A DNA stretch of 64,000 nt from the NCBI GenBank assembly GCA_012522585.1, contig JAAYKD010000069.1, positions 1,602-65,601 of the forward strand, given 5' to 3'. This document shows positions 23,501 to 60,414 of the stretch, piece by piece. Within the stretch, counting starts at the first letter, position 1. Each line of letters begins with the position of its first letter. The notes under the pieces were generated by a model. The model worked only from the letters and a program-made list of their open reading frames with translations, was not told the origin of the DNA and made no database searches. The position numbers and the translations under genes are program-made. The DNA comes from Bacillota bacterium. GTDB lineage: Bacteria > Bacillota > JAAYKD01.

Positions 23501-24438
23501 TATTCCTTTTGGGCAATGATGCTCACCCATTCACCTTCCTCTTTAATTTCTAAAACTTCTAAGGACTCTTCCTTTATCATGAGAACGACTTCTTCTTTAC
23601 GGCTATTAATAATGCCTCCGGAAATGAATATTCCCTGAGGTAAGAGCAGTTCTCTGACCTGAGCTAGAAGGCTTAAAATTGCATCAGCCACAATATTGGC
23701 GACGATTAGATCCACAGGTTCCTTGACTTGATCTGCCAAATTACCTTCAATCAGATTCACTTTTCCTGTCAAACCATTCAATTTAAGGTTCTGACGGGCA
23801 CTGGCTATGGCTAAGGGGTCATTGTCCACAGCAATCAAATTTCCAGCTCCCAATTTGGAGGCTGCAATGGTTAAAATTCCAGAACCACAACCTATATCCA
23901 AAAAGCTAGCTCCTCTAGGCAAATACTCTTCCAGGGCCTGTAAGCACAATTTTGTGGTTGGATGCATGCCGGTGCCAAAGGCTAAACCCGGATCTAACAC
24001 AATTTCCAGATCATTTTGTTCTAAAACAAAGTCTTCCCAATGAGGCCTGATGACTAAACTTTTACCCAGGCGGAAAGGCTTATAATATTGCTGCCAAGCC
24101 GTGGCCCAATTCTCATCCTCCACCTGAAAAACTCTGACCCTAGAGGAACCGGCATCGAGGCCATAGCTGTTTAAAAGAGCTGCTTGAGCTTTGATCTCCT
24201 CAAAGAGAGCAGGGAATTTTTCACTATCCTGAAACCATCCCCTGACTTGGGCTTCAGCATCAGGGTCCACCGGGGGCTTTGCTTCCACATAATCCCAACT
24301 ACCTTTTTGATTTTCCACTTTAGTCAAGGCAAAAGGATCATCAATGGCTACTCCCTTAGCTCCCGCTTCCAACAAAATTGCTGAGGCTGCTTCTATAGCC
24401 TCATCTCTGACCGAGATGGTAATTTCCAACCAATTCAT
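23500..24438 (-). CDS. prmA: Ribosomal protein L11 methyltransferase
   Basis: SAM motif LDIGCGSGIL. Synteny after dnaJ. Confidence 0.9.
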   Translation of the reverse strand: MNWLEITISVRDEAIEAASAILLEAGAKGVAIDDPFALTKVENQKGSWDYVEAKPPVDPDAEAQVRGWFQDSEKFPALFEEIKAQAALLNSYGLDAGSSRVRVFQVEDENWATAWQQYYKPFRLGKSLVIRPHWEDFVLEQNDLEIVLDPGLAFGTGMHPTTKLCLQALEEYLPRGASFLDIGCGSGILTIAASKLGAGNLIAVDNDPLAIASARQNLKLNGLTGKVNLIEGNLADQVKEPVDLIVANIVADAILSLLAQVRELLLPQGIFISGGIINSRKEEVVLMIKEESLEVLEIKEEGEWVSIIAQKE

Positions 24439-24512
24439 CTTATTTTCTCCTCTACATACAAAAAAGGCTGCGGTTTAAGAACAACTTAAACCTAACAGCC
24501 TTTTTTAAACAA

Positions 24513-48118: not shown

Positions 48119-49294
48119 ATGCAGTATCAAGGTTTAGTCATCTCTGTACCTAAGGAGATTATGCCTGGTGAAAAACGTGTTGCAGCGACACCGGAAACAG
48201 TCAAAAAACTCGTGTCCCAAGGAGCCACCCTATTAGTAGAAGAAAGTGCAGGTTTAGGTTCTTATTTTTCTGATGCAGAATATGTGGAAGCCGGTGCTAC
48301 TATTGTCGGTGATGTAGAAGAATTATTCTCCAAAGCCAATATCATATTCAAAGTAAAAGAGCCTCAATTCAACCATCAGGTAGGAAAACATGAAGTGGAT
48401 CTGATGAAAGCGGAGCAAGTTCTGATAACCTTCTTACATCCAGCAGCTCCTGCCAACCACGAAATGATTCAAAATTTGACGGCTAAAGGTGTAACGGCTT
48501 TGACTTTAGATGGAATACCTCGTATTTCCAGAGCCCAAGCTATGGACGCTTTGACTTCCATGAGCACTGTTGCCGGCTATAAATCAGTCTTGATGGCAGC
48601 TAACCGAGTACCAAAATTCCTGCCCATGATCGGCACTGCCATCGGTATGATGCCACCGGCCAATGTAACTGTCTTAGGAGCAGGAGTTGCCGGTTTACAG
48701 GCTATCGCCACAGCTAAACGCTTAGGCGCCGTGGTCTATGCTGCAGATATCCGACCGGAAGCTGCCGAGCATGCTAAGAGCCTAGGAGCAAGAATCGTGG
48801 AAACTGGTGTTCCGGCCGAAATTGCTATCGGTGAAGGTGGCTATGCCAAAGCCCTGCCCCAAGAATGGATTGTCAAAGAGCAAACTGCTCTCTACGATAC
48901 CATCATCAATTCAGATATCGTCATAGCAACTGCTTTAGTTCCCGGAAGAATGGCTCCCACCTTAATTACCGAAGAGATGGTCAAAGCCATGAAACCCGGC
49001 TCAGCCATCGTCGACGTTTCCATTGACCAAGGAGGCAACTGTGCTCTGACAGTGGGCGGCGAATTAATCGAACGCCACGGCATCAGCATCGACGGAACTA
49101 AGAATATTCCCGGTATGGTAGCCACCAGTGCAACCAGTATGTTCTCTAAAAATATAGTCAACTTTGTTGCCAATATCGTCAAAGACGGAAAGATTATCAT
49201 CGACACAAACGATGAAATTACCGATTCTACCCTGGTCTGTCAAAATGGAAAACTGGTTCACGCCGGTACCCGTGAGGCTTTAGGCCTTAATTAA
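48119..49294 (+). CDS. pntAA: NAD(P) transhydrogenase subunit alpha part 1 (dI, NAD(H)-binding)
   Basis: Alanine-dehydrogenase-like dI fold with GAGVAGLQA Rossmann motif and the N-terminal PKEIMPGEKRVAATPE signature. Confidence 0.92.
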   Translation: MQYQGLVISVPKEIMPGEKRVAATPETVKKLVSQGATLLVEESAGLGSYFSDAEYVEAGATIVGDVEELFSKANIIFKVKEPQFNHQVGKHEVDLMKAEQVLITFLHPAAPANHEMIQNLTAKGVTALTLDGIPRISRAQAMDALTSMSTVAGYKSVLMAANRVPKFLPMIGTAIGMMPPANVTVLGAGVAGLQAIATAKRLGAVVYAADIRPEAAEHAKSLGARIVETGVPAEIAIGEGGYAKALPQEWIVKEQTALYDTIINSDIVIATALVPGRMAPTLITEEMVKAMKPGSAIVDVSIDQGGNCALTVGGELIERHGISIDGTKNIPGMVATSATSMFSKNIVNFVANIVKDGKIIIDTNDEITDSTLVCQNGKLVHAGTREALGLN

Positions 49295-49317: not shown

Positions 49318-49593
49318 ATGAATGCAATCTGGTTGCTTGCAATATTTCTCGTCTCCACTTTGCTGGGATATAAAGTTATCAGCGAAGTTCCATCATTATT
49401 GCACACACCATTGATGTCCGGCAGCAATGCCATCTCAGGAGTTACTATTTTAGGATCCTTGGTCTCGACTGCAGCCGCTGCTGCCTTGGGGAGCAGATTA
49501 TTGGGATTTGTTGCTATCGTTTTAGCATGTATAAACTTAGTCGGTGGTTTTGTAGTCACCGACCGCATGCTGAGAATGTTTAAAAGTAAATAG
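49318..49593 (+). CDS. pntAB: NAD(P) transhydrogenase subunit alpha part 2 (small membrane subunit)
   Basis: 91-aa, 3-TM protein with the conserved GYKVISEVPSLLHTPLMSGSNAISG block. Confidence 0.9.
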   Translation: MNAIWLLAIFLVSTLLGYKVISEVPSLLHTPLMSGSNAISGVTILGSLVSTAAAAALGSRLLGFVAIVLACINLVGGFVVTDRMLRMFKSK

Positions 49594-49607: not shown

Positions 49608-52600
49608 ATGGAACCGATTTATATCATTATCTCTATCGTTTTAGCAGCTCTCGTTCTTCTCGGCATCAAACTCATGAGTTCTCCCAAAACAGCCGTCCAA
49701 GGTAATTTAATCAGCGCCTTCAGTATGTTGGCGGCAGTAATTTTGGTGCTTTGGACTAACAATATTTTAAGTCTCCCTCTATTGTGGGCAGCAATAGCCA
49801 TCGGAAGTATAATCGGCTATGTTCTGGGTATGAAAGTCACCATGATTCAAATGCCTCAGGTTGTTGCTCTTTTAAACGGATTGGGAGGCGGAGCTTCCCT
49901 TTTAGTTGCAGCAGCTGAAATTCTCAGCAACTTTAATCAAATGGACGCTTTTAGTAAAGTGAGCGGTCAATTGGCTTTAATCGTCGGTGGTATCACCCTC
50001 TCAGGCAGCATGATTGCAGCAGCCAAGTTGGACAGAAGGATGAGTCAACGTCCCGTAGTCCTCAAAGGCCACAATATTTTAGCCAACGGTAGTTTGGTCA
50101 TCATGATTGTTGCCACTTTTCTCACCTTATTGGACAATTCACCTTATATTTTCTTATCCTTCCTGATTTTAATACTATCCCTAGCCTATGGTTATCTTTT
50201 CTCTGTCCGAGTAGGCGGAGCTGATATGCCTATCACCATCAGTTTGTTAAACTCCTTTTCCGGATTAGCAGGAGCAATAGTTGGTTTTACCATAGGTGAG
50301 CCACTTTTGGTTGCAGTCGGTGCCATTGTCGGAGCCTCGGGTCTGATTTTGACTCAAATCATGTGTAAAGCCATGAATCGCTCCTTAGGCAGTGTCTTAA
50401 GCGGAGGCACCTCCAAACCGAGTAGCAAACCCAAGGTCGTGCCTGCGAAAGTGGAAGAGCCCGTTTTAACAGAGCCCATAAAAGAAGAAGTTGCTAAAAG
50501 TTTAGGGGATTTATTAAAAGAAGCCCAACGAGTCATCATCATACCAGGCTATGGCATGGCCTTGGCTCAGGCTCAAAATGAAGTAAAAGCCCTGACCGAT
50601 GCACTCATCGCCCAGGGTAAACAGGTAGAATTCGCTATACACCCCGTAGCCGGACGGATGCCCGGACATATGAATGTCCTTTTAGCAGAGGTTGATGTTC
50701 CCTACGAATTGATGCGAGAGATGGACGATATCAATCCTCTCTTTGCCGAAACGGATGTAGCCATCGTGGTTGGATCTTGTGACGTTGTCAATCCAGCCGC
50801 CAACACAGCCGAAGATACCCCCATCTACGGAATGCCTGTTCTTTCCGTAGAAAACGCCAAACATGTAATCGTTTGCAATTTAGATACAAACCCTGGCTAT
50901 TCTGGCGTAGACAATCCTCTCTATGAGATGGAACATGTCAGACTCCTTTTGGGAGATGCCAAAGCAACTCTCAAGCAATTACTGGCTGAATTTAAAGAGG
51001 AAAAGAAATCTGAGCCCCAGGAGATCGAAGAAGAAAAAACTCCAAGCTCTCCTTCCTATTTAGAACTATTGCACCAAGGAGAAAAAGTTATCTTCGTTCC
51101 CGGATACGGTATGGCCTTAGCCCAAGCCCAATCATTGGTCAAACAGTTGGCTGATGCTTTGGAAGAAAAAGGCAAAGAGGTCAAATTTGCCATCCACCCT
51201 GTAGCCGGACGAATGCCCGGTCACATGAATGTGCTCTTAGCAGAAACGGATGTGCCTTACGATAAACTTTGGGAAATGGACGATATCAATCCTCTCTTCC
51301 CGGAAACCGATATAGTCATCATCGTTGGTGCCAATGACGTAGTCAACCCGGCAGCCAACACTGCAGAAGACACACCCATCTACGGTATGCCCGTCTTATC
51401 AGTTGAAAATGCCAAACATGTAATTGTCTGTAACTTAGATAAAAGCCCTGGCTATTCCGGCGTAGATAATCCTTTATACGAAATGGATAATGTGACTCTG
51501 CTTTTAGGCGACGCTAAAGAGAGCCTGACTCAACTGATCGACCAGTTTAAACAAGGACCTATAGCCAAAGAGCCGGAGCCTCTAGCTCAAGGAACAGACA
51601 CTCTAACCACTGTTCTGGCTAAACCTGAAAGAGTCATCATCGTGCCTGGATATGGCATGGCTTTAGCCCAAGCTCAAACCCAGGTCAAGGAGATTTATGA
51701 AACCTTGGAGGCCAAGGGAACAGAAGTGGAATTTGCCATTCACCCAGTGGCAGGACGGATGCCCGGACATATGAATGTGCTCTTAGCAGAAGTCGATATT
51801 CCTTATGAAAAATTGAGAGAAATGGATGATATCAACCCTCTCTTCCCGGAAACAGATCTGGTCATCATTGTGGGCGCCAATGACGTAGTCAACCCGGCAG
51901 CCAACACAGCTGAGGACACACCCATTTACGGCATGCCCATTCTCAATGTAGATCAAGCTAAGCATATTGTGGTTTGCAATTTGGATCAAAGCCCAGGTTA
52001 TTCCGGTGTGGATAACCCCCTATACGAGATGGACAATGTCACTCTTTTGTTGGGCGATGCCAAGGACAGCCTGAATAAAATACTGGATATCTTCAAGGCA
52101 GAACCCTCAGCAGCCCCAGAAGCAGAACCAACTTCAGTAGCTCAAACTTCAGTCTTAGCCGCAGCTAAAAAGGTCATCATCGTACCAGGCTATGGCATGG
52201 CTTTAGCTCAGGCTCAAACTCTAGTCAAAAGTGTTTACGATGCCCTAGAAGCCAAGGGTGCAGAGGTGGAATTCGCCATCCACCCGGTGGCAGGACGCAT
52301 GCACGGCCACATGAACGTTCTCTTAGCAGAAGTCGATGTTCCTTACGAAAAACTGAGAGAGATGGACGATATCAACCCTCTCTTCCCGGAAACCGACGTG
52401 GTCATCGTAGTGGGCGCCAATGACGTAGTCAACCCGGCGGCCAATACAGCCGAGGACACACCTATTTATGGGATGCCCATCTTAAATGTAGACCAAGCCA
52501 AACACATCATAGTCTGCAACTTGGATAGGAGCCCAGGTTATTCCGGCGTAGACAACCCCCTATACGATATGGAGAATGTGACTTTGCTTCTAGGTGATGC

Positions 52601-52640
52601 CAAAGCATCTTTAGAAATCCTTCTCGAAGAATTGAAATAA
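49608..52640 (+). CDS. pntB: NAD(P) transhydrogenase subunit beta carrying four tandem dIII (NADP(H)-binding) domains (1010 aa)
   Basis: Residues 1 to about 290 form the multi-TM dII domain. They are followed by four repeats of about 180 aa, each with PGYGMALAQAQ, AIHPVAGRMPGHMNVLLAE, GANDVVNPAANTAEDTPIYGMP and NPLYEM. Confidence 0.9.
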   Translation: MEPIYIIISIVLAALVLLGIKLMSSPKTAVQGNLISAFSMLAAVILVLWTNNILSLPLLWAAIAIGSIIGYVLGMKVTMIQMPQVVALLNGLGGGASLLVAAAEILSNFNQMDAFSKVSGQLALIVGGITLSGSMIAAAKLDRRMSQRPVVLKGHNILANGSLVIMIVATFLTLLDNSPYIFLSFLILILSLAYGYLFSVRVGGADMPITISLLNSFSGLAGAIVGFTIGEPLLVAVGAIVGASGLILTQIMCKAMNRSLGSVLSGGTSKPSSKPKVVPAKVEEPVLTEPIKEEVAKSLGDLLKEAQRVIIIPGYGMALAQAQNEVKALTDALIAQGKQVEFAIHPVAGRMPGHMNVLLAEVDVPYELMREMDDINPLFAETDVAIVVGSCDVVNPAANTAEDTPIYGMPVLSVENAKHVIVCNLDTNPGYSGVDNPLYEMEHVRLLLGDAKATLKQLLAEFKEEKKSEPQEIEEEKTPSSPSYLELLHQGEKVIFVPGYGMALAQAQSLVKQLADALEEKGKEVKFAIHPVAGRMPGHMNVLLAETDVPYDKLWEMDDINPLFPETDIVIIVGANDVVNPAANTAEDTPIYGMPVLSVENAKHVIVCNLDKSPGYSGVDNPLYEMDNVTLLLGDAKESLTQLIDQFKQGPIAKEPEPLAQGTDTLTTVLAKPERVIIVPGYGMALAQAQTQVKEIYETLEAKGTEVEFAIHPVAGRMPGHMNVLLAEVDIPYEKLREMDDINPLFPETDLVIIVGANDVVNPAANTAEDTPIYGMPILNVDQAKHIVVCNLDQSPGYSGVDNPLYEMDNVTLLLGDAKDSLNKILDIFKAEPSAAPEAEPTSVAQTSVLAAAKKVIIVPGYGMALAQAQTLVKSVYDALEAKGAEVEFAIHPVAGRMHGHMNVLLAEVDVPYEKLREMDDINPLFPETDVVIVVGANDVVNPAANTAEDTPIYGMPILNVDQAKHIIVCNLDRSPGYSGVDNPLYDMENVTLLLGDAKASLEILLEELK
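50526..52640 (+). repeat. Intragenic tandem repeat: four units of about 540-560 bp (starts about 50526, 51084, 51630, 52170), each encoding one dIII domain
   Basis: Self-alignment of the pntB sequence. Copies differ mainly at third-codon positions. Confidence 0.9.
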
Positions 52641-52660
52641 AATCCTTATTCAATAAATTA

Positions 52661-52703
52661 AAAAAGCAGCCTCAGATTTTCGTCTGAAGCTGCTTTTTAT
52701 TTT
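52661..52703 (+). terminator. Intrinsic terminator after pntB
   Basis: AAAAAGCAGCCTCAGATTTTCGTCTGAAGCTGCTTTTTATTTT. Confidence 0.85.
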
Positions 52704-52755
52704 ATTATTTGCACTTAGGACTTTTAAGGAACACTATGGGCTGCCTAGTTCACTG

Positions 52756-52863
52756 ATAAAAAAGTAATCATCGTACCAGGATACAACATGGCTTTAACAT
52801 AAGTTCAAATATTGATCAAAGAAGCTTCTAACCTGGAAGCTGAACAAGCTAATAAAATCTAAG
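52756..52863 (+). pseudogene. Decayed remnant of the start of a fifth dIII repeat (..KVIIVPGYNMALT*..), downstream of the pntB terminator
   Basis: aaaaagtaatcatcgtaccaggatacaacatggctttaac... aligns to repeat-unit starts (aaaaaggtcatcatcgtaccaggctatggcatggctttagc...) with many substitutions and a stop. Confidence 0.7.
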
Positions 52864-52916
52864 CATAAATAAAAACAGTCCGGTCTTCAAATTTAAGACC
52901 AGACTGTTTTTTTCTA

Positions 52917-53879
52917 TTATTTTCTCTTGAATTCTCGCCGATAGCTTTCTGCCTCACTGGGAGAACAATAGACAAAATGTTCAGGTAATATCTCAACCAT
53001 GGAAGGCTGTTCAACAGAGTAATCATGAGTCTCCAAGCCGTCATAGGTAATCCGCCTGCGTCTTTTCTCACTCAAGGGATTGGGATGAGGTATGGCCGAG
53101 AGCAAAGCTCTGGTATAAGGATGGATGGGATTGTCGTAGAGTTCATCTGCCTCTGCCACTTCCACCAACTTTCCATAGTACATGACGCCGATACGATCGG
53201 AAAAATGCTTGACTACACTTAAATCGTGAGCAATAAACAAAATGGTTAAACCTAAATCTTCCTTGAGACTGCCCAGCAAATTTATAACCTGAGCTTGGAT
53301 GGAAACATCCAAAGCAGAAACCGGTTCGTCGGCAATGACCATGGCCGGCTCAACTACTATGGCTCTGGCAATGCCTATACGCTGACGCTGTCCTCCAGAA
53401 AACTCATGAGGATAACGAGTCGCATGCTCTCTGGTCAGGCCTACTTTATTCAGGATGCTGTAAACTTTTTCATCAACTACAGCTTTATCTTTAATTCCCC
53501 TGACTTCCAAGCCTTCTCCGATGATTTCCCGAACTGTCATCCGAGGATTTAAGGAATCCACAGGATCTTGAAAAATCATCGCTACCTTATCGGTGATGTA
53601 GCGACGCAGCCTGCTATTCATCGGGCCGGAAATATCCTCGCCATCTAAAAACATTTCACCTGAGGTGGGGGTATAAAGACGAATAATCGAGCGCCCCGTG
53701 GTGGTCTTGCCACAACCTGACTCCCCTACCAAACCAAAAGTTTCCCCTTGATAGATATGAAAAGTCACGTCATCTACGGCTTTAACGACCTGCTGGCTTT
53801 TACCGCTGCCACTATAAAAATACATGCTCAAATTATTTACTTCCAGTATTTTTTTCCTTGAATCACTGATTGCCCTCAC
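52917..53879 (-). CDS. oppF: Oligopeptide ABC transporter ATP-binding protein OppF
   Basis: Walker A GESGCGKTT, signature FSGGQRQR, and the OppD/F C-terminal extension. Confidence 0.9.
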   Translation of the reverse strand: MRAISDSRKKILEVNNLSMYFYSGSGKSQQVVKAVDDVTFHIYQGETFGLVGESGCGKTTTGRSIIRLYTPTSGEMFLDGEDISGPMNSRLRRYITDKVAMIFQDPVDSLNPRMTVREIIGEGLEVRGIKDKAVVDEKVYSILNKVGLTREHATRYPHEFSGGQRQRIGIARAIVVEPAMVIADEPVSALDVSIQAQVINLLGSLKEDLGLTILFIAHDLSVVKHFSDRIGVMYYGKLVEVAEADELYDNPIHPYTRALLSAIPHPNPLSEKRRRRITYDGLETHDYSVEQPSMVEILPEHFVYCSPSEAESYRREFKRK

Positions 53880-54945
53880 CCCTTCCTTTATGATACTCTT
53901 CTTCCTCCACCAGCATGCGGTCGATACGATTGCGTAAAACTTCAGGCATCTCTACATCCGGCGCATTCTCATGCAAAAGCCAAGTGGCTGCATAATGAGT
54001 ATCACTAACTTTGAAAAAGGGCGGTTGCTCTTTAAAATCGATTTCCATAGCATAGCGGTTGCGAGAAGCAAAAGCATCTCCAACCGGGGGTTCAAGCATA
54101 TTGGGAGGGGTTCCGGGAATAGCCAGAAGCTTTTCCTTTGAGTCCATATCTGGCATAGAAGATAGCAGGGCCCAGGTGTATGGGTGCTTGGGGTTGAAGA
54201 AAATTTCTTCGCTGGTCCCATATTCTACTACTTTCCCTGCATACATAACATAGACGAAGTCTGCCATATTGGCCACAACTCCCAAGTCATGGGTAATAAA
54301 GACAATGGAAAGATTTTTTTGGTATTTTAATTCATTGATCATATCCAAAATACGAGCTTGAACAGTTACATCAAGAGCCGTTGTCGGTTCATCACAAATC
54401 AGTATTTCCGGCTCATTGGCCAAAGCAATGGCTATAACAATGCGCTGGCGCATTCCCCCTGATAATTGGAAGGGATAATGTTCGAATCTTTGTTCTACAT
54501 CGGGTATGCCAACATCTCGCATCAGATCTAAGGCTCTTTCTCTCGCTTCTTTTTTACTGACCTTTTGATTTTCCAAAATCATCTCGGTAATCTGTTTGCC
54601 TACCTTCATAATAGGGTTCAAAGAAGACAGAGGGTCTTGGAAGATCAGACCGATTTTTTTACCTCTGATATCTTGAAATTGCTTTTCGCTGATTTTAGTC
54701 AGATCATCACCGTCATAGAGAATACTGCCTTTTTCAATGATAGCATTGCCTGCCAAAATTCCCATGATACTCTTGGCTGTGACGCTCTTACCGCTACCAC
54801 TCTCCCCTACTATTGCCACAGTTTTTCCTCTGGGCAATTGAAAAGAAACACCTCTGACCGCTTGCACTTTACCTACAAAACCTCGAAAGGAGACTGTTAA
54901 ATCCTGGACATCTAATACTATTTCATCGTTGATTTGATTATTCAT
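53863..54945 (-). CDS. oppD: Oligopeptide ABC transporter ATP-binding protein OppD
   Basis: Walker [10 protein letters not shown], signature LSGGMRQR, and a C-terminal oligopeptide-transporter domain. Confidence 0.9.
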
Positions 54946-54957
54946 AGCTCCTCCTTT

Positions 54958-56094
54958 CTAGTCTACACCGCGCATAGTCGGATCAAAAGCATCCCGCAAA
55001 CCATTTCCAAAGAGGTTAAAAGAAATCATCAAGATGGAAATCAGGATGGCAGGAAACAGAGTCTGATAGGGATAGGATGTGAGCACTTTCTGAGCATCAG
55101 AAAGCAAAACACCCATAGATGGTTCAGGTGCTTGAATTCCCAAACCGATAAAGGCTAAGAAAGCTTCGCTAAAGATAGCTCCGGGAACAGCAATCATGGC
55201 CCGAGTTATGATCGGCCCGATAGAGTTAGGTAAGATGTGTCTAAAAATCAATTTGCGATCATCAACTCCCAGTGTCCTGGCAGCTAAAACATATTCTCGA
55301 CCTTTAAAGCGCAAGAATTGTGCTCTGATCAATCTGGCTGTACCTATCCAGCCTCTGACAACCAAAGCTATAATTATGGCACGAATACCTGTACCCAAGA
55401 CTAAAATCAGCATGGTAGCCAAGATAGATTGAGGAAAAGCCCCTACTATTTCAGTAAAGCGCATCATCACCATATCCGCTTTGCCACCGTAATAACCGGC
55501 TATTGCCCCATAAATTGTGCCGATGACTATATTGACGAAAACTGCTATAACAGCAATCATCAAAGACACTCTAGCTCCTCGCCAGGTTCTAGTCCACAAA
55601 TCTCGACCTAAATAATCGGTACCGAACCAGAAGTTAATATCATCAGGGACATCATGCATTTTATACATATCCGCTTTTATGTCGGCCATCGCTATATCCC
55701 TGCTGGTAAAGGTTCTGACCGTTTCAAGAATACTTCCTTCGGGGTACCTGCTGGGATCAGTAAGATTGGCTACCTGACGATTATAAAGAATTCTGGTACC
55801 ATCAAACACTCCAAATTTAGCGAATATGGGAATCCGAGGTGGCAGATTAACCCGATCAACCATCTGTTGATTATAGCCAAATTGATTCATAGCCGGCCCG
55901 AACAAAGCCATAATAATTATAAAAACAATTATTCCAAAGGCAATAATAGCTGATTTATTTCTGGAAAGCCTGATTAAAGCATCTCCGAAGTAACTGACCG
56001 GTTGCCCAACAAAACTGTCATCAAAAAGATCTTCATCTAACTGGACTAAAACAAAATCTTCCGGAGCAAGACGGGAATTCAATTTTTTATTCAT
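54958..56094 (-). CDS. oppC: Oligopeptide ABC transporter permease OppC
   Basis: BPD-transporter permease with the EAA-like loop, plus an N-terminal extension. Confidence 0.88.
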   Translation of the reverse strand: MNKKLNSRLAPEDFVLVQLDEDLFDDSFVGQPVSYFGDALIRLSRNKSAIIAFGIIVFIIIMALFGPAMNQFGYNQQMVDRVNLPPRIPIFAKFGVFDGTRILYNRQVANLTDPSRYPEGSILETVRTFTSRDIAMADIKADMYKMHDVPDDINFWFGTDYLGRDLWTRTWRGARVSLMIAVIAVFVNIVIGTIYGAIAGYYGGKADMVMMRFTEIVGAFPQSILATMLILVLGTGIRAIIIALVVRGWIGTARLIRAQFLRFKGREYVLAARTLGVDDRKLIFRHILPNSIGPIITRAMIAVPGAIFSEAFLAFIGLGIQAPEPSMGVLLSDAQKVLTSYPYQTLFPAILISILMISFNLFGNGLRDAFDPTMRGVD

Positions 56095-57040
56095 CCTTCT
56101 TACCTCCTACTCTGACACGTGGGTCAACTAAACCGTAAGATAAGTCTACGAGTAGGGCTGTTCCGATTGAAATCATCGCATAAAACATCAATGTTGCCAC
56201 GGTCAAAGAGTGGTCATTAGCATTGATTGATTTTATCATAGTCCCGCCTACACCCGGTATGGAAAAAAGCCTTTCTATGACCATGGAGCCTCCTACTATA
56301 TTGGCGAACATGGGCACGATAACATTCATCATCGGTAAAGAAGCATTACGGAAAGCATGCTTAACTGTAGCTTTAAACCTGCCTAGCCCCTTCGTCTTGG
56401 CCAAGAGCATATATTCAGAGCCCAAAACCTCTATCAATTCTCCTCTGAGATAACGGGTGATGGTTGCTATGGGGCTCAAGGATAGGGCGGCGATAGGCAA
56501 TACCATGGACTTTAATCGCAGAGCACCTACCGCTGAGGGCTGATACAAAATAGGAAAGAGTTTTAGCTTATAGGCTAAAAAGTACTGCATCAAAGAAGCA
56601 AAAACAAAAGAAGGAACAGAAATAAAGATAATTACACCGACAGAAATCAGAGTATCCGCCCCTCGATTCTTCTGCAAAGCTGCCACAATACCGGCAACTA
56701 TACCTATAGGCACAGAGATCAGCAGAGAAATCAAATTTATTTGTAAAGAGACTGGTATCCTATTGGCTAAAACTTGGAAAGCTGGAACTCCCGGTTCAAC
56801 TTTAACCGAAGTTCCCCAATCCTTATCCATAACCACGCCTTTGAGAAAATAATAAAACTGGATATGGATAGGTTTATCCAAATGGGCCCGTTCTATCAAC
56901 ATATCTATTATGGCTTGGTCTAAGTTAGGGTCATCATAGACACTCCCTGGCATGAGGCGAACAACTGCAAAAGCAAGTGCCAAAATGATGAAGAGAGTAA
57001 CAGCTGCTGCTAGGAGGCGCTTAAGAACATATTTAAGCAT
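56087..57040 (-). CDS. oppB: Oligopeptide ABC transporter permease OppB
   Basis: Six-TM permease. Start MLKYVLKRLL.. is typical of OppB/DppB. Confidence 0.88.
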   Translation of the reverse strand: MLKYVLKRLLAAAVTLFIILALAFAVVRLMPGSVYDDPNLDQAIIDMLIERAHLDKPIHIQFYYFLKGVVMDKDWGTSVKVEPGVPAFQVLANRIPVSLQINLISLLISVPIGIVAGIVAALQKNRGADTLISVGVIIFISVPSFVFASLMQYFLAYKLKLFPILYQPSAVGALRLKSMVLPIAALSLSPIATITRYLRGELIEVLGSEYMLLAKTKGLGRFKATVKHAFRNASLPMMNVIVPMFANIVGGSMVIERLFSIPGVGGTMIKSINANDHSLTVATLMFYAMISIGTALLVDLSYGLVDPRVRVGGKKDE

Positions 57041-57184
57041 AATGGATTATACCTCCCCTTTCTAGTAAAAAATGGATCTAAAAATGCTTTATATTTCATA
57101 ATTCACTCTTTAAAAAAACCTATTAAATCATGACAAGGCATCAAGAAATAAATCTTGACGCCTTGTCCATAATTAGAACATCGA

Positions 57185-58951
57185 TTATTCTTCCATATCC
57201 ATAAATCTCCAGCCGAAGCCGAGACCGACTGTATATTCGTCTACAGGTAGAACTATACGCTCAGACCAGAGCACAAAAGCTTTCTCTTGGATTACAGGAA
57301 TACAGGTTATATCGTCCAAGATAATTGACTTTTCTATTTCTACAGTAGCATCGAAGGTTTTACGCTCGTCGAAACGATACTCTTCTGTTAATAATTTTTC
57401 ATAATTATCATCGAGGAAGTCATTGCTATAAGGAGAATATTTGTTTGTTGCATAACTGCGATAAGGGGCAAACTTTTTATGAGGCTCATAAGTTTCTGCT
57501 CCTAAATGCCAACCTGACCAACACATATCCCATTCGGTCGTCGGACCTTCATTAGAAGTGCGCATCAAGGCTAAGGCTGCAGTATGTTGGATTGCCTGCA
57601 ATTTCAGCTCGAATTTATCTTCGCCAAAAATCTGAGGCAATTGGTTCTGAATATATTCAGAAGCTGTACGCAATGCGTCCATTCCCTCGCTATAATGCAA
57701 ACTCAGACTCATTTTATCTAAGTTGTATTTTTCCAGTGCCTCGTCGAAAAGCTCCTTAGCTAAATCAGGATCATAGCCTCCATTGGCTGGCAGCCATTCA
57801 TTGGCCTCTTCCATTTGACGATAGAGAGTGCCATCGGCGAAGGATACACCTGAGTAAGATAAGAAGAAGGGAGCGGCAGTGGTAAAGGTTAAATCGGCAA
57901 TTGTATTTCTGTCAATAGCATGGAATATGGCTTTACGCACCAGAGGATCTTGTAAGAAAGCTTTATCTGGGTTGTTTCTATTGACTTCGATGGTACGAAT
58001 TGCTTTTTGATCGTAAGAAATCAAACTTGGATCTTCAGCATACTTGGCTAAACCATTAGCACCAAGAGCCACATAATCACTATCTCCACTTTCAAAGAGC
58101 TCTAATCTGGTAGCTTCATCTAAAACGACTCGGCCTTCGATTCCATCTAATTTGATCAGATGAGCATTGATGAAGTTTTCGTTCTTTTCAAAGGTTCTTT
58201 CCGATGCTTTAACCCAATTTGTCAGGTTAAATGGTCCGCATCCCATGAATTTTTCTAACGAAGTGCCATAGCTATTGCCTGTCCGGTCAGCATTCATACA
58301 TTCTTCATATATGGGCTCATAAACAGGACTGGTTGATCTAACAGCAAAATGGCGAATAACTTCTTGTTCGGTGTATTTCTGAGCTGTGGTAATTTCCAAA
58401 GTATAATCGTCTAAAGCTTTTAAACCAACATCTTCCCAATCTACTGCAGGGTTGGGGTTACCGTCTTTATCAGTACCTTTTTGTTGGTAATACTCTAAAC
58501 CATTTTTGACAAGAATATATTGATTGGCAATACTACTGGTAGAATTCCAGGCTAGATCTGGATCTAAGCCCATCTTCCAAGAATAGATAAAGGTATTGGC
58601 ATCAATTGGTTCTCCGTTAGCCCATTTGGCTTCAGGATTGACTTTAATTGTCCAGACATAATCATCTTCAGCAACAGGATAGTCCTCAGCTAAGGCTGGT
58701 ACATAATATGATTTGTCGCGGCTTTCAGCTGGTACTATCTGATAGAGTGCCACTTGAATAAAGTCTACAATTTCATAGTTTGGTGCAGCATTACAATCGT
58801 GAGGGTTGATGGAGTTGTCCTCTCCACTGCTTATCCATTTGAATATTTTTGGGGCAGCTTCAGGAGATGGGGGTGGTTCACTGGGGTTGCAACCGGCCAA
58901 AGCCAGGGCAACGATTAAAAGAGATAAGAAAAATAACAATCGTTTACGCAA
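57185..58951 (-). CDS. oppA: Oligopeptide-binding lipoprotein OppA (SBP family 5)
   Basis: Lipobox LALAGC. 588-aa family-5 solute-binding protein. Confidence 0.88.
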   Translation of the reverse strand: MRKRLLFFLSLLIVALALAGCNPSEPPPSPEAAPKIFKWISSGEDNSINPHDCNAAPNYEIVDFIQVALYQIVPAESRDKSYYVPALAEDYPVAEDDYVWTIKVNPEAKWANGEPIDANTFIYSWKMGLDPDLAWNSTSSIANQYILVKNGLEYYQQKGTDKDGNPNPAVDWEDVGLKALDDYTLEITTAQKYTEQEVIRHFAVRSTSPVYEPIYEECMNADRTGNSYGTSLEKFMGCGPFNLTNWVKASERTFEKNENFINAHLIKLDGIEGRVVLDEATRLELFESGDSDYVALGANGLAKYAEDPSLISYDQKAIRTIEVNRNNPDKAFLQDPLVRKAIFHAIDRNTIADLTFTTAAPFFLSYSGVSFADGTLYRQMEEANEWLPANGGYDPDLAKELFDEALEKYNLDKMSLSLHYSEGMDALRTASEYIQNQLPQIFGEDKFELKLQAIQHTAALALMRTSNEGPTTEWDMCWSGWHLGAETYEPHKKFAPYRSYATNKYSPYSNDFLDDNYEKLLTEEYRFDERKTFDATVEIEKSIILDDITCIPVIQEKAFVLWSERIVLPVDEYTVGLGFGWRFMDMEE

Positions 58952-59160
58952 TAAAACCTACTCCTTTTCCTTATAAATTACATCTATTATTGCATAGATG
59001 GCTTTAACTGTCAATAATTATTTGAATACTACTCTATTCGTTTAAATGGAACATCATACTATTGATCCAATGGCCTGGAGTAGGTGTTTTGGCTCAATCA
59101 AAACGAGGTTTTCAGACCATTCCACATCGATTTTATACATTTCCCCACTTCATGTTGCAT

Positions 59161-59195
59161 AAAAAAAGCTTCTGCTAGCTCGCAGAAGCTTTTTG
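59161..59195. terminator. Intrinsic hairpin terminator between the hypothetical gene and the opp promoter region
   Basis: AAAAAAAGCTTCTGCTAGCTCGCAGAAGCTTTTTGG. Confidence 0.7.
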
Positions 59196-59508
59196 GTCCT
59201 ATTGAAAAATCTGGGTTTTAGTCACGAAACATCCCCGGCTATGCCAGTTTTCAGAAAATACCACCCAACAACTTCGATCGGAAAATTTAATCATTTATTT
59301 TCAATCAGTAAATTCTCCCTATTGCTTATTTCCTTGCCTAGATAATCTAATCAGAAAGGCTAGCTGAAAGCCAATTAACCCGAGCCATAGCCAATAAAAA
59401 AGCTAGAACCACCTCTAATTAATACAGTTTAAACTAGAAGTATAGCCGAACGGGTCGCAACAATAATAACTTAATACAGATAGAAAAATTGAGATAGACT
59501 TAAGTGAA

Positions 59509-60414
59509 TCAATCTTCCCAAGAACTAGGGTAAAACTCGGTTACCTCTCCTTGGGCACCAAAGCCGTAGAGCACCTCGTCCTCCACTTTAAAATAGGAGA
59601 AAAAGTCAAAGGTTCCATCAATAGTGCGATTAAGAATTTTGCCTTCATCATAATGATAAATACCCGATTCAGATGGTTTCTTACTGCCATTTTCATAAAT
59701 ATAAAGCTGATTGGATATTACCCAAACGGCTAACTTTTTGTCGCTAGTTTCCCAATAACCTGCAACTGCTTGATAAAACTCATCCAATTCCCTTTTATAG
59801 GCAAATAAATCTTGTCCGTGGTCTTCTGCTAAATCGATGAAAAAATCGTACATGGCGATTGTAGCCCTATTATCAACGGCAGCTCCGCTATTATCTCGAG
59901 CATAAATCCCTTCCCCACTAGCATAATCTATCCGTAGATCCGAACCTATGTTAGGGGGTAAGCCAGCGGTAAAAATATTGGTCCCATTACTAGCAGCCAC
60001 CGGATACTCATCGATGATGGCCTGCAAATCATCCAGTGTTGTTAAAGGCAACTCTATTTCAAAATCAAAACCTTTCATGCCAACCAAAGGGATGGCAGAG
60101 CCTTCAAAAATAACCTGGTCTTGATCTTTTCGAACAATAAAAGAACAGTATTCAAAGTCCATCTCTTTTTCATAAAAATGGAAAAAGTCACACGCAAATT
60201 CATAGCTGAAAAAAACTATCTCTTTTGATTCAATCACTTTAGGCGCCTTTTTATTTGTCCGATCAGTTCTTTTCCCCGTCATTTCCGATCTGTTAACCAT
60301 TTCTTGAATCACCTCCCGAATATAATCAAAGCCAAATTTAAATCCAGAAGAAAGAGATTTTTGCATCACTAAAAGAGCTGCTAGAAGAACCAGCAGACCA
60401 ATAAGCCACTTCAT
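59509..60414 (-). CDS. Hypothetical exported/membrane-anchored protein (N-terminal signal anchor, no recognisable domain)
   Basis: ORF with AGAGGT RBS before MKWLIGLLVLLAALLV. The listed ORF starts 7 codons upstream. Confidence 0.5.
   Translation of the reverse strand: MKWLIGLLVLLAALLVMQKSLSSGFKFGFDYIREVIQEMVNRSEMTGKRTDRTNKKAPKVIESKEIVFFSYEFACDFFHFYEKEMDFEYCSFIVRKDQDQVIFEGSAIPLVGMKGFDFEIELPLTTLDDLQAIIDEYPVAASNGTNIFTAGLPPNIGSDLRIDYASGEGIYARDNSGAAVDNRATIAMYDFFIDLAEDHGQDLFAYKRELDEFYQAVAGYWETSDKKLAVWVISNQLYIYENGSKKPSESGIYHYDEGKILNRTIDGTFDFFSYFKVEDEVLYGFGAQGEVTEFYPSSWED

Follow-up and report, generated by a model that had tools for sequence, protein, structure and literature searches.

A decayed, non-coding fragment of a transhydrogenase dIII unit beyond the pntB terminator of a Bacillota bacterium

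We analyzed a stretch of 64,000 nucleotides (hereafter the window) from the genome of a Bacillota bacterium. The window contains a proton-translocating transhydrogenase operon made of three genes, pntAA, pntAB and pntB, followed by a convergent gene for an ABC transporter ATPase. The intergenic region between pntB and the ABC gene measures 276 bp and comprises two hairpins with the relic of a dIII unit in between. The nearest relative beyond the sister strains, a Logan assembly referred to here as L001, serves as the main point of comparison. The features discussed below are the following.

48119..49294, plus strand: pntAA (transhydrogenase alpha-1, dI), an open reading frame of 391 aa whose L001 orthologue carries AlaDh_PNT_N/C.
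49318..49593, plus strand: pntAB (alpha-2, the 4-TM part of dII), an open reading frame of 91 aa with an orthologue that carries PF12769 PNTB_4TM.
49608..52640, plus strand: pntB, 1010 aa, encoding the membrane dII and then four tandem dIII units, with Pfam PNTB matched in four stretches.
50504-51004, 51064-51559, 51609-52105 and 52150-52647, plus strand: the pntB dIII units 1 to 4, as given by nhmmer matches and repeat families D1-D3.
52661..52698, unstranded: hairpin T1, predicted intrinsic terminator of pntB, with an A-tract, 16-nt arms and a T-tract (inverted repeat I2; terminator scan).
52699..52748, unstranded: spacer after T1, which may hold post-terminator ancestral remains and/or the remains of an inter-unit linker.
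52749..52849, plus strand: dIII relic (decayed head of a dIII unit) in its probable extent, with a robust core at 52757-52820 and a TAA at 52800-52802.
52850..52864, unstranded: AT-rich run-up to T2, containing a second in-frame TAA at 52860-52862.
52865..52917, unstranded: hairpin T2, predicted to terminate in both directions, in contact with the stop codon of the convergent ABC ATPase gene (inverted repeat I1; terminator scan).
52917..53879, minus strand: OppF-like oligopeptide ABC transporter ATPase, convergent, an open reading frame of 320 aa, with ABC_tran and oligo_HPY found on an identical protein.

A protein identical to the pntAA product is named 'NAD(P) transhydrogenase subunit alpha' at NCBI, where the PntB of the window is also present as the MAG-derived PntB of a 'Firmicutes/Bacillota bacterium'. 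The dIII units of pntB follow each other with start-to-start spacings of 555, 546 and 540 nt, and the gene ends with a stop codon at 52638-52640. Downstream, T1 folds at -22.1 kcal/mol (z = -7.4) and T2 at -19.0 and -26.5 kcal/mol on the plus and minus strands, respectively (z about -7 to -8). Judged from their sequence, both hairpins are predicted intrinsic (rho-independent) terminators, in which a GC-containing hairpin is followed by a U-tract and an opposite A-tract would allow bidirectional action. A 58-nt spacer separates T1 from the robust core of the relic. On the other side of the relic, the run-up at 52850-52864 possibly represents what is left of the last pntB codons and stop of a duplicated copy.

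An earlier, sequence-only reading of this DNA had claimed that 52756-52863, past the pntB stop and hairpin, aligns to the head of a dIII unit over roughly 100 bp, with several substitutions and a premature stop. Our analysis confirms that the homology to dIII heads is real and that it is robust over 64-74 nt, so that the claimed length was generous. More specifically, a repeat search recovered 52757-52820 as a fifth copy in register with the four unit heads, ungapped over 64 nt and 75% identical to dIII unit 4 (the true unit heads are 72-81% identical among themselves). A formal pairwise alignment, on which the claim had been made to depend, found a significant match: the fragment scored 51 in local alignment, compared with 14.4 +/- 2.1 (maximum 25) for 500 shuffles. 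When the fragment was compared with both strands of the whole window cut into 150-nt chunks, the heads of the units scored 51, 47, 44 and 31 against a background of 16 +/- 3 (maximum 28). An nhmmer profile built from 22 dIII units of the window's clade matched the fragment with E=5.8e-6 (aligned 52749-52822, envelope 52735-52843), and its only matches in the 64-kb window were the four true units and the fragment.

The homology probably extends over 52749-52849, about 100 nt, as judged from a tblastn match at 52757-52849 (59% over 32 aa, with one codon gap). In the ungapped register, offsets 64-84 match the unit at chance level (3-7/21) and offsets 85-106 weakly (8-13/22); carrying the alignment on to about 52849 needs a 3-nt gap, which falls in a region of the unit that also varies among the true units. 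Thus, the first part of the interval originally proposed stands as probable relic up to about 52849, and its last 14 nt (52850-52863) belong to the AT-rich run-up to T2. A Pfam scan of the fragment matched PNTB as the sole family (E=0.0028, 17.1 bits, profile positions 302-329 of 456), and the matched part is the start of dIII. The score lies below the gathering score of 31.7 bits because the match spans just 28 residues.

The fragment is no longer a domain. Translated from 52758, it reads KKVIIVPGYNMALT*VQILIKEASNLEAEQANKI*, the two stops being the TAA codons at 52800-52802 and 52860-52862, in the place of KKVIIVPGYGMALAQAQTLVKSVYDALEAKGAEV in unit 4. Compared with dIII of the proton-translocating transhydrogenase PntB (PF02233), the fragment shares the first beta-strand, the Gly-rich turn and the helix (VIIVPGYGMA...). 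However, about 30 of the roughly 165 residues of the whole domain are represented, a stop interrupts them, and the invariant Gly of PGYG is replaced by Asn. HPVAGRMPGHMN and the later NADP(H)-binding segments are absent, and the next conserved dIII block (FAIHPVAGRMPGHMN) would coincide with T2 and the ABC gene. The claimed substitutions and premature stop are both present: the fragment differs from the unit consensus at 15 positions, 12 of which are changes from GC to A/T, and the GC content has fallen to 32%, versus 47% in the homologous stretch of unit 4. Among sites invariant across the seven units of the window and L001, 6/33 are changed in the fragment, equivalent to a Jukes–Cantor (JC) distance of about 0.21; among those invariant across all 22 units, 6/31 are changed. 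Accordingly, the fragment has what is expected of a pseudogene (same-orientation homology to an adjoining intact parent gene, truncation, stops and composition drift) and lacks the uninterrupted, whole-domain reading frame with NADP(H)-binding segments that is expected of a functional dIII.

Because the source is a MAG with repeated units, and because sister-strain contigs break off within the dIII repeats, at 52416, we considered whether the fragment could be an assembly artefact, or else a chance similarity. Eight contigs were retrieved through exact matches to the neighbouring ABC protein and to a member of the PntB cluster. The fragment is found in the same place on all eight, which are independent and represent several samples and two strain lineages. 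Four of them (L170, L172-L174) are identical to the window across the fragment region; the other four (L167-L169, L171), which come from other samples, are about 98% identical overall and carry the fragment with the same TAA. The fragment therefore cannot be put down to assembly and is not confined to a single MAG. It is moreover at least 25% different from every true unit and consequently not a mis-joined read, and chance similarity is excluded by the alignment and profile statistics. With independent contigs and an nhmmer E of 5.8e-6 against it, the chance or artefact explanation is refuted, and the probability we would still grant it is negligible. Comparison with sister strains, which had also been suggested as a check, thus recovers the same relic and the same TAA in a diverged lineage.

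The same comparison reveals how the fragment evolves. Between the two lineages (L167, L168 and L171 versus the window), 94 nt of relic contain seven differences, five of which alter the encoded residue; one of the changes turns the first relic codon from AAA to TGA in the sister strain. The flanking pntB 3' end and ABC gene show 36 synonymous and 0 non-synonymous differences between the strains, and the spacer at 52699..52748 shows five differences. The rate of change in the relic is comparable to the local synonymous rate (7/94 versus 36/265, Fisher p=0.14) and far higher than the non-synonymous rate (p=5e-8). Since five of seven differences are residue-altering and the overall rate is synonymous-like, the fragment evolves free of coding constraint. 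The true dIII units, in contrast, are under strong purifying selection, with dN of 0.03-0.07 and dS above 1.5 between the window units and their L001 orthologues.

These data also bear on the idea that the fragment is a functional element, be it a small ORF, a small RNA (3'-UTR-derived or independent) or a spacer that separates two terminators and thereby insulates pntB from the opp operon. Such a role would fit with the persistence of the fragment through the strain split, with an RBS-like AAGGA plus ATG at 52726-52738, and with a core, 52764-52814, that is identical between strains along with all of T2 (100% conserved in the sister strain) while neighbouring bases differ. However, this 51-nt core is an interval chosen post hoc, and an adjacent 175 nt (52838-53012) are likewise identical. 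The dIII-like frame has no start codon. The ATG at 52736 lies in a different frame, where it begins an ORF of 6 codons, and both the RBS-like motif and the second codon of that ORF are altered in the sister strain, as is the first relic codon, now a stop. Rfam matches all fall well short of the gathering scores and centre on the hairpins, 52740-52865 folds no better than shuffles (z=0.01), and promoter-like matches are weak (9/12). Furthermore, L001 has a single hairpin at this locus and no fragment. We regard a function of this kind as very unlikely. Taken together, the fragment is a non-functional gene relic, which decays and has no role.

Comparison with the other contigs provides several further observations on this region. 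First, the stem arms of T1 are identical in L167, L168, L169 and L171, and the loop at 52677-52682 is changed from TTTTCG to CAAAAA. Apart from one substituted base, the new loop is the reverse complement of the old one (CGAAAA), an inversion as expected from intrastrand template switching in a palindrome. Second, strain divergence over 52416-59880 is mosaic relative to L167: the proportion of synonymous differences (pS) is 0.16 at the 3' end of pntB, 0.13 over the ABC ATPase gene, and only 0.06 and then 0.015 over the next two opp genes, after which differences become dense again around 59077-59533. This pattern suggests recombination between strains. Third, position 52303 (PntB residue 899) makes unit 4 read GRMHGHMN, against an invariant GRMPGHMN in the 21 other units examined. 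L174, another assembly of the same population, has the canonical Pro at residue 899 (C, not A); the His of unit 4 is thus not fixed and reflects either a rare variant or an error of sequencing or assembly.

To place the relic in its evolutionary context, we turn to the relatives. The PntB of L001 is 84% identical to that of the window, and the synteny of pntB and the convergent ABC gene is the same. L001 has three dIII units, an intergenic region of 62 bp with one long hairpin, and no relic. Units are orthologous as 1/1 (82.6%), 2/2 (80.2%) and 4/3 (78.5%, terminal tail included); over the last 93 nt, window unit 4 is 74% identical to the terminal unit of L001 versus 60-68% to other units. No L001 unit pairs with window unit 3, which is most similar to unit 4 (79.4%). 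More broadly, 166 related loci were gathered from genome and metagenome collections, among which 21 have two units, 24 have three and 3 have four. A tblastn search over these loci, 48 of them with at least two units, found no second relic, all partial matches being contig ends. Scans of genomes and metagenomes for closer relatives yielded none beyond 69%. The relic is hence lineage-specific: present in two strain lineages and absent from L001 and about 48 other multi-dIII loci.

The sequence-only reading had also suggested that the dIII array has expanded and contracted over time. This view finds support apart from the relic, with 2-5 units in relatives, a window unit 3 that lacks an L001 orthologue, and a nearly identical pair of units in L103, a locus whose PntB is about 69% identical. 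At 3928-4953 of L103, two dIII units are 97.4% identical in DNA, and the near-identity takes in about 12 codons of the preceding linker (KKTPGEVLAEAKK), so that the repeat boundary lies inside the linker. The pair represents a very recent in-frame duplication of a unit or the product of gene conversion. Within the window, the first roughly 370 nt of unit 3 (which with its linker occupies 51633-52165) are closest to unit 4 (80-89%), and its last 93 nt are slightly closer to unit 2 (69.9% versus 63.4%). A chimera of a unit-4-like head and a unit-2-like tail, made by unequal crossover of unit 2 with the terminal unit, was considered for unit 3 and dropped, as the differences are too small to claim it. 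PntB homologues of about 630, 830-870, 1000-1050 and 1170-1234 aa are common in Bacillota, Bacteroidales, Desulfovibrio and others, the five-unit proteins being those of about 1170-1234 aa. Multi-dIII PntB proteins (2-5 units) are widespread in anaerobes, including Bacillota, Bacteroidales (Porphyromonas, Dysgonomonas), Desulfovibrio and Anaerolineaceae, and a literature search on multi-dIII transhydrogenases found no description of this architecture.

Stand-alone dIII genes following pntB were examined as a possible source of the relic and rejected: of four apparent breaks between units, three are alignment over-extension and one is a frameshift in a contig of 2.7x coverage. Small ORFs directly 3' of pntB do occur in two related loci (L085 1933-2115, 60 aa; L086 5520-5693, 57 aa). 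They have no Pfam match on record and, having no dIII similarity, were rejected as dIII pieces. The downstream neighbours in these two loci are DUF1538, P-II and Na/H-exchanger genes, not the opp operon.

Which unit the relic derives from was assessed at 24 variable sites. The fragment matches unit 4 at 15/24, L001 unit 3 at 16/24, units 2 and 3 at 14/24, and unit 1, L001 unit 1 and L001 unit 2 at 6-10/24; at these sites it is closest to units of the terminal type. A single source unit was not retained, given that the 24 sites do not separate unit 4, L001 unit 3 and units 3 and 2. Divergence at synonymous sites is likewise saturated when units are compared with each other (dS 1.25 or more).

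We hypothesize, with moderate confidence, that the relic arose by tandem duplication of the terminal unit together with the stop and the terminator, followed by deletion within the useless second copy. In the ancestor of the strain group, a tandem duplication would have started in the linker or head of the last dIII unit and extended past the pntB stop to just beyond the bidirectional terminator. The upstream copy would then constitute the intact pntB with T1, and the downstream copy would have left T2 beside the convergent ABC gene. Deletion would then have removed most of the second dIII copy, which had no promoter, start codon or in-frame link, and the roughly 100 nt left would have drifted towards A/T. 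This account would explain a dIII head in the same orientation behind the terminator, the presence of two hairpins as opposed to one in L001, and the behaviour of the L001 hairpin in BLAST, where the 5' flank and arm align with T1 and the 3' arm and flank with T2. Among the genomes found, none represents an intermediate stage in which the second copy is still complete. We infer all three elements of this account, that is, placement by a terminator-spanning tandem duplication, shortening by later deletion, and an event later than the L001 split.

The duplication account predicts that T1 and T2, as well as their flanks, are paralogous. The T1 region (52653-52716) aligned to the T2 region (52865-52928) with a score of 26, which is reached by 1/500 shuffles. 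However, other terminators of the window score 25-30 against T1, so the likeness of T1 and T2 is no better than that of unrelated terminators. The site at 24251-24475 on the minus strand scores 30 against T1, above the 26 of T2, and is probably a further terminator, of the kind AAAAAGCAGCC...GGCTGCTTTTT. The stretch 52851-52878 is identical to the pntB stop region (52636-52666) in 24/31 alignment columns, a result equalled by 9/500 shuffles. The spacer after T1 compared with the ABC gene 3' end was equalled by 14/500 shuffles and is absent from the top window-wide matches, and the spacer at 52699..52748 showed no significant match to the inter-unit linkers. A three-way alignment of the window copies with L001 gives suggestive, unprovable matches. 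Taken as a test of an extended duplication, the comparison of one side (pntB stop region, T1, spacer) with the other (end of the relic, T2, end of the ABC gene) gives scores that look good against shuffles and yet are matched by T1 with unrelated terminators, and the claim of proof was therefore abandoned. The power of this paralogy test is low because the expected divergence between two neutral copies is about 0.4 and the sequence is AT-rich. Of the earlier proposal that the fragment is the relic of a further 3'-terminal duplication, the decayed, non-coding piece of dIII thus stands, and the history is our inference, the T1 and T2 flanks being no more alike than other terminators. The label of a 'fifth repeat' is correct as to dIII homology and loose otherwise, as there is no sign of past membership in the reading frame.

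An alternative is that a fifth in-frame unit once ended at T2, was cut off by a rearrangement and was then mostly deleted. The present 3' end (unit-4 tail, stop, T1 and spacer) would in this case have come from a shorter allele through a crossover that was illegitimate on its right-hand side, or from some other rearrangement. Such a history would account for the failure to detect any likeness of the spacer to the ABC 3' end; PntB proteins with five units exist, and recombination appears to be active at the locus, given the mosaic divergence along the opp operon (pS from 0.16 to 0.015). Nonetheless, unit 4 is the orthologue of the terminal unit of L001, tail included, and was therefore already terminal in the common ancestor; the flank behind the stop also aligns with that of L001. 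A lost fifth unit further requires more events than a single duplication and deletion, and none of the close relatives has five units (L001 has three, the relatives at 65-73% identity two to four). We consider this alternative unlikely.

The sequence of the relic also provides a rough date. Its decay, about 0.21 substitutions per site, is estimated from 33 sites and carries a wide uncertainty. The split of the sister strains corresponds to about 0.08 per branch (pS 0.13-0.16), and the split from L001 to at least 0.4 per branch (dS 0.8-2.8, saturated). On these figures, the event probably occurred after the split from L001, and it certainly preceded the split of the sister strains.

Tandem duplications by unequal or illegitimate recombination across a gene boundary leave gene fragments at the junction. 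The relic resembles the pseudogene remnants at bacterial duplication junctions in being a partial copy of the parent in the same orientation, truncated and with no start or frame continuity. It further resembles them in its stops, its drift to A/T, its approximately neutral rate and the intact functional copies on either side. It differs in that the second copy of the flank (terminator and end of the neighbouring gene) is statistically unrecognisable and in that the relic is very short, about 100 nt. The other known process with which to compare it is the in-frame gain and loss of units in the dIII array: the sequence family and locus are the same, and copy number varies between 2 and 5 in relatives. 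However, the array changes in relatives are all in frame within one ORF, unlike the relic of the window, which lies beyond a stop codon and a terminator.

A more far-reaching reading would make the relic a frozen intermediate in the growth of the dIII array from its 3' end, along a route that has so far not been described. Along this route, the terminal unit would be duplicated with its stop and terminator, and subsequent deletion of the stop and terminator would bring the new unit in frame; where that second step fails, as would be the case at the relic, the extra copy decays. We regard this as quite improbable.

The relic is thus an ordinary pseudogene fragment of a familiar kind, which has gone unannotated. 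For annotation, it should not be called a gene, and pntB should not be extended across it. Its value as a historical marker is modest: rearrangements of dIII units reached past the reading frame in the lineage of the window, and a decay of about 0.2 substitutions per site places the event between the L001 split and the split of the present strains. If the 3'-end growth route were true, the locus would be a dated marker of copy-number turnover in multi-dIII transhydrogenases. More notable than the relic are the multi-dIII arrays themselves (2-5 units), an architecture that is apparently undescribed. A PntB with several dIII units, each under purifying selection, is hard to reconcile with a mechanism of one dIII per protomer (swivel).
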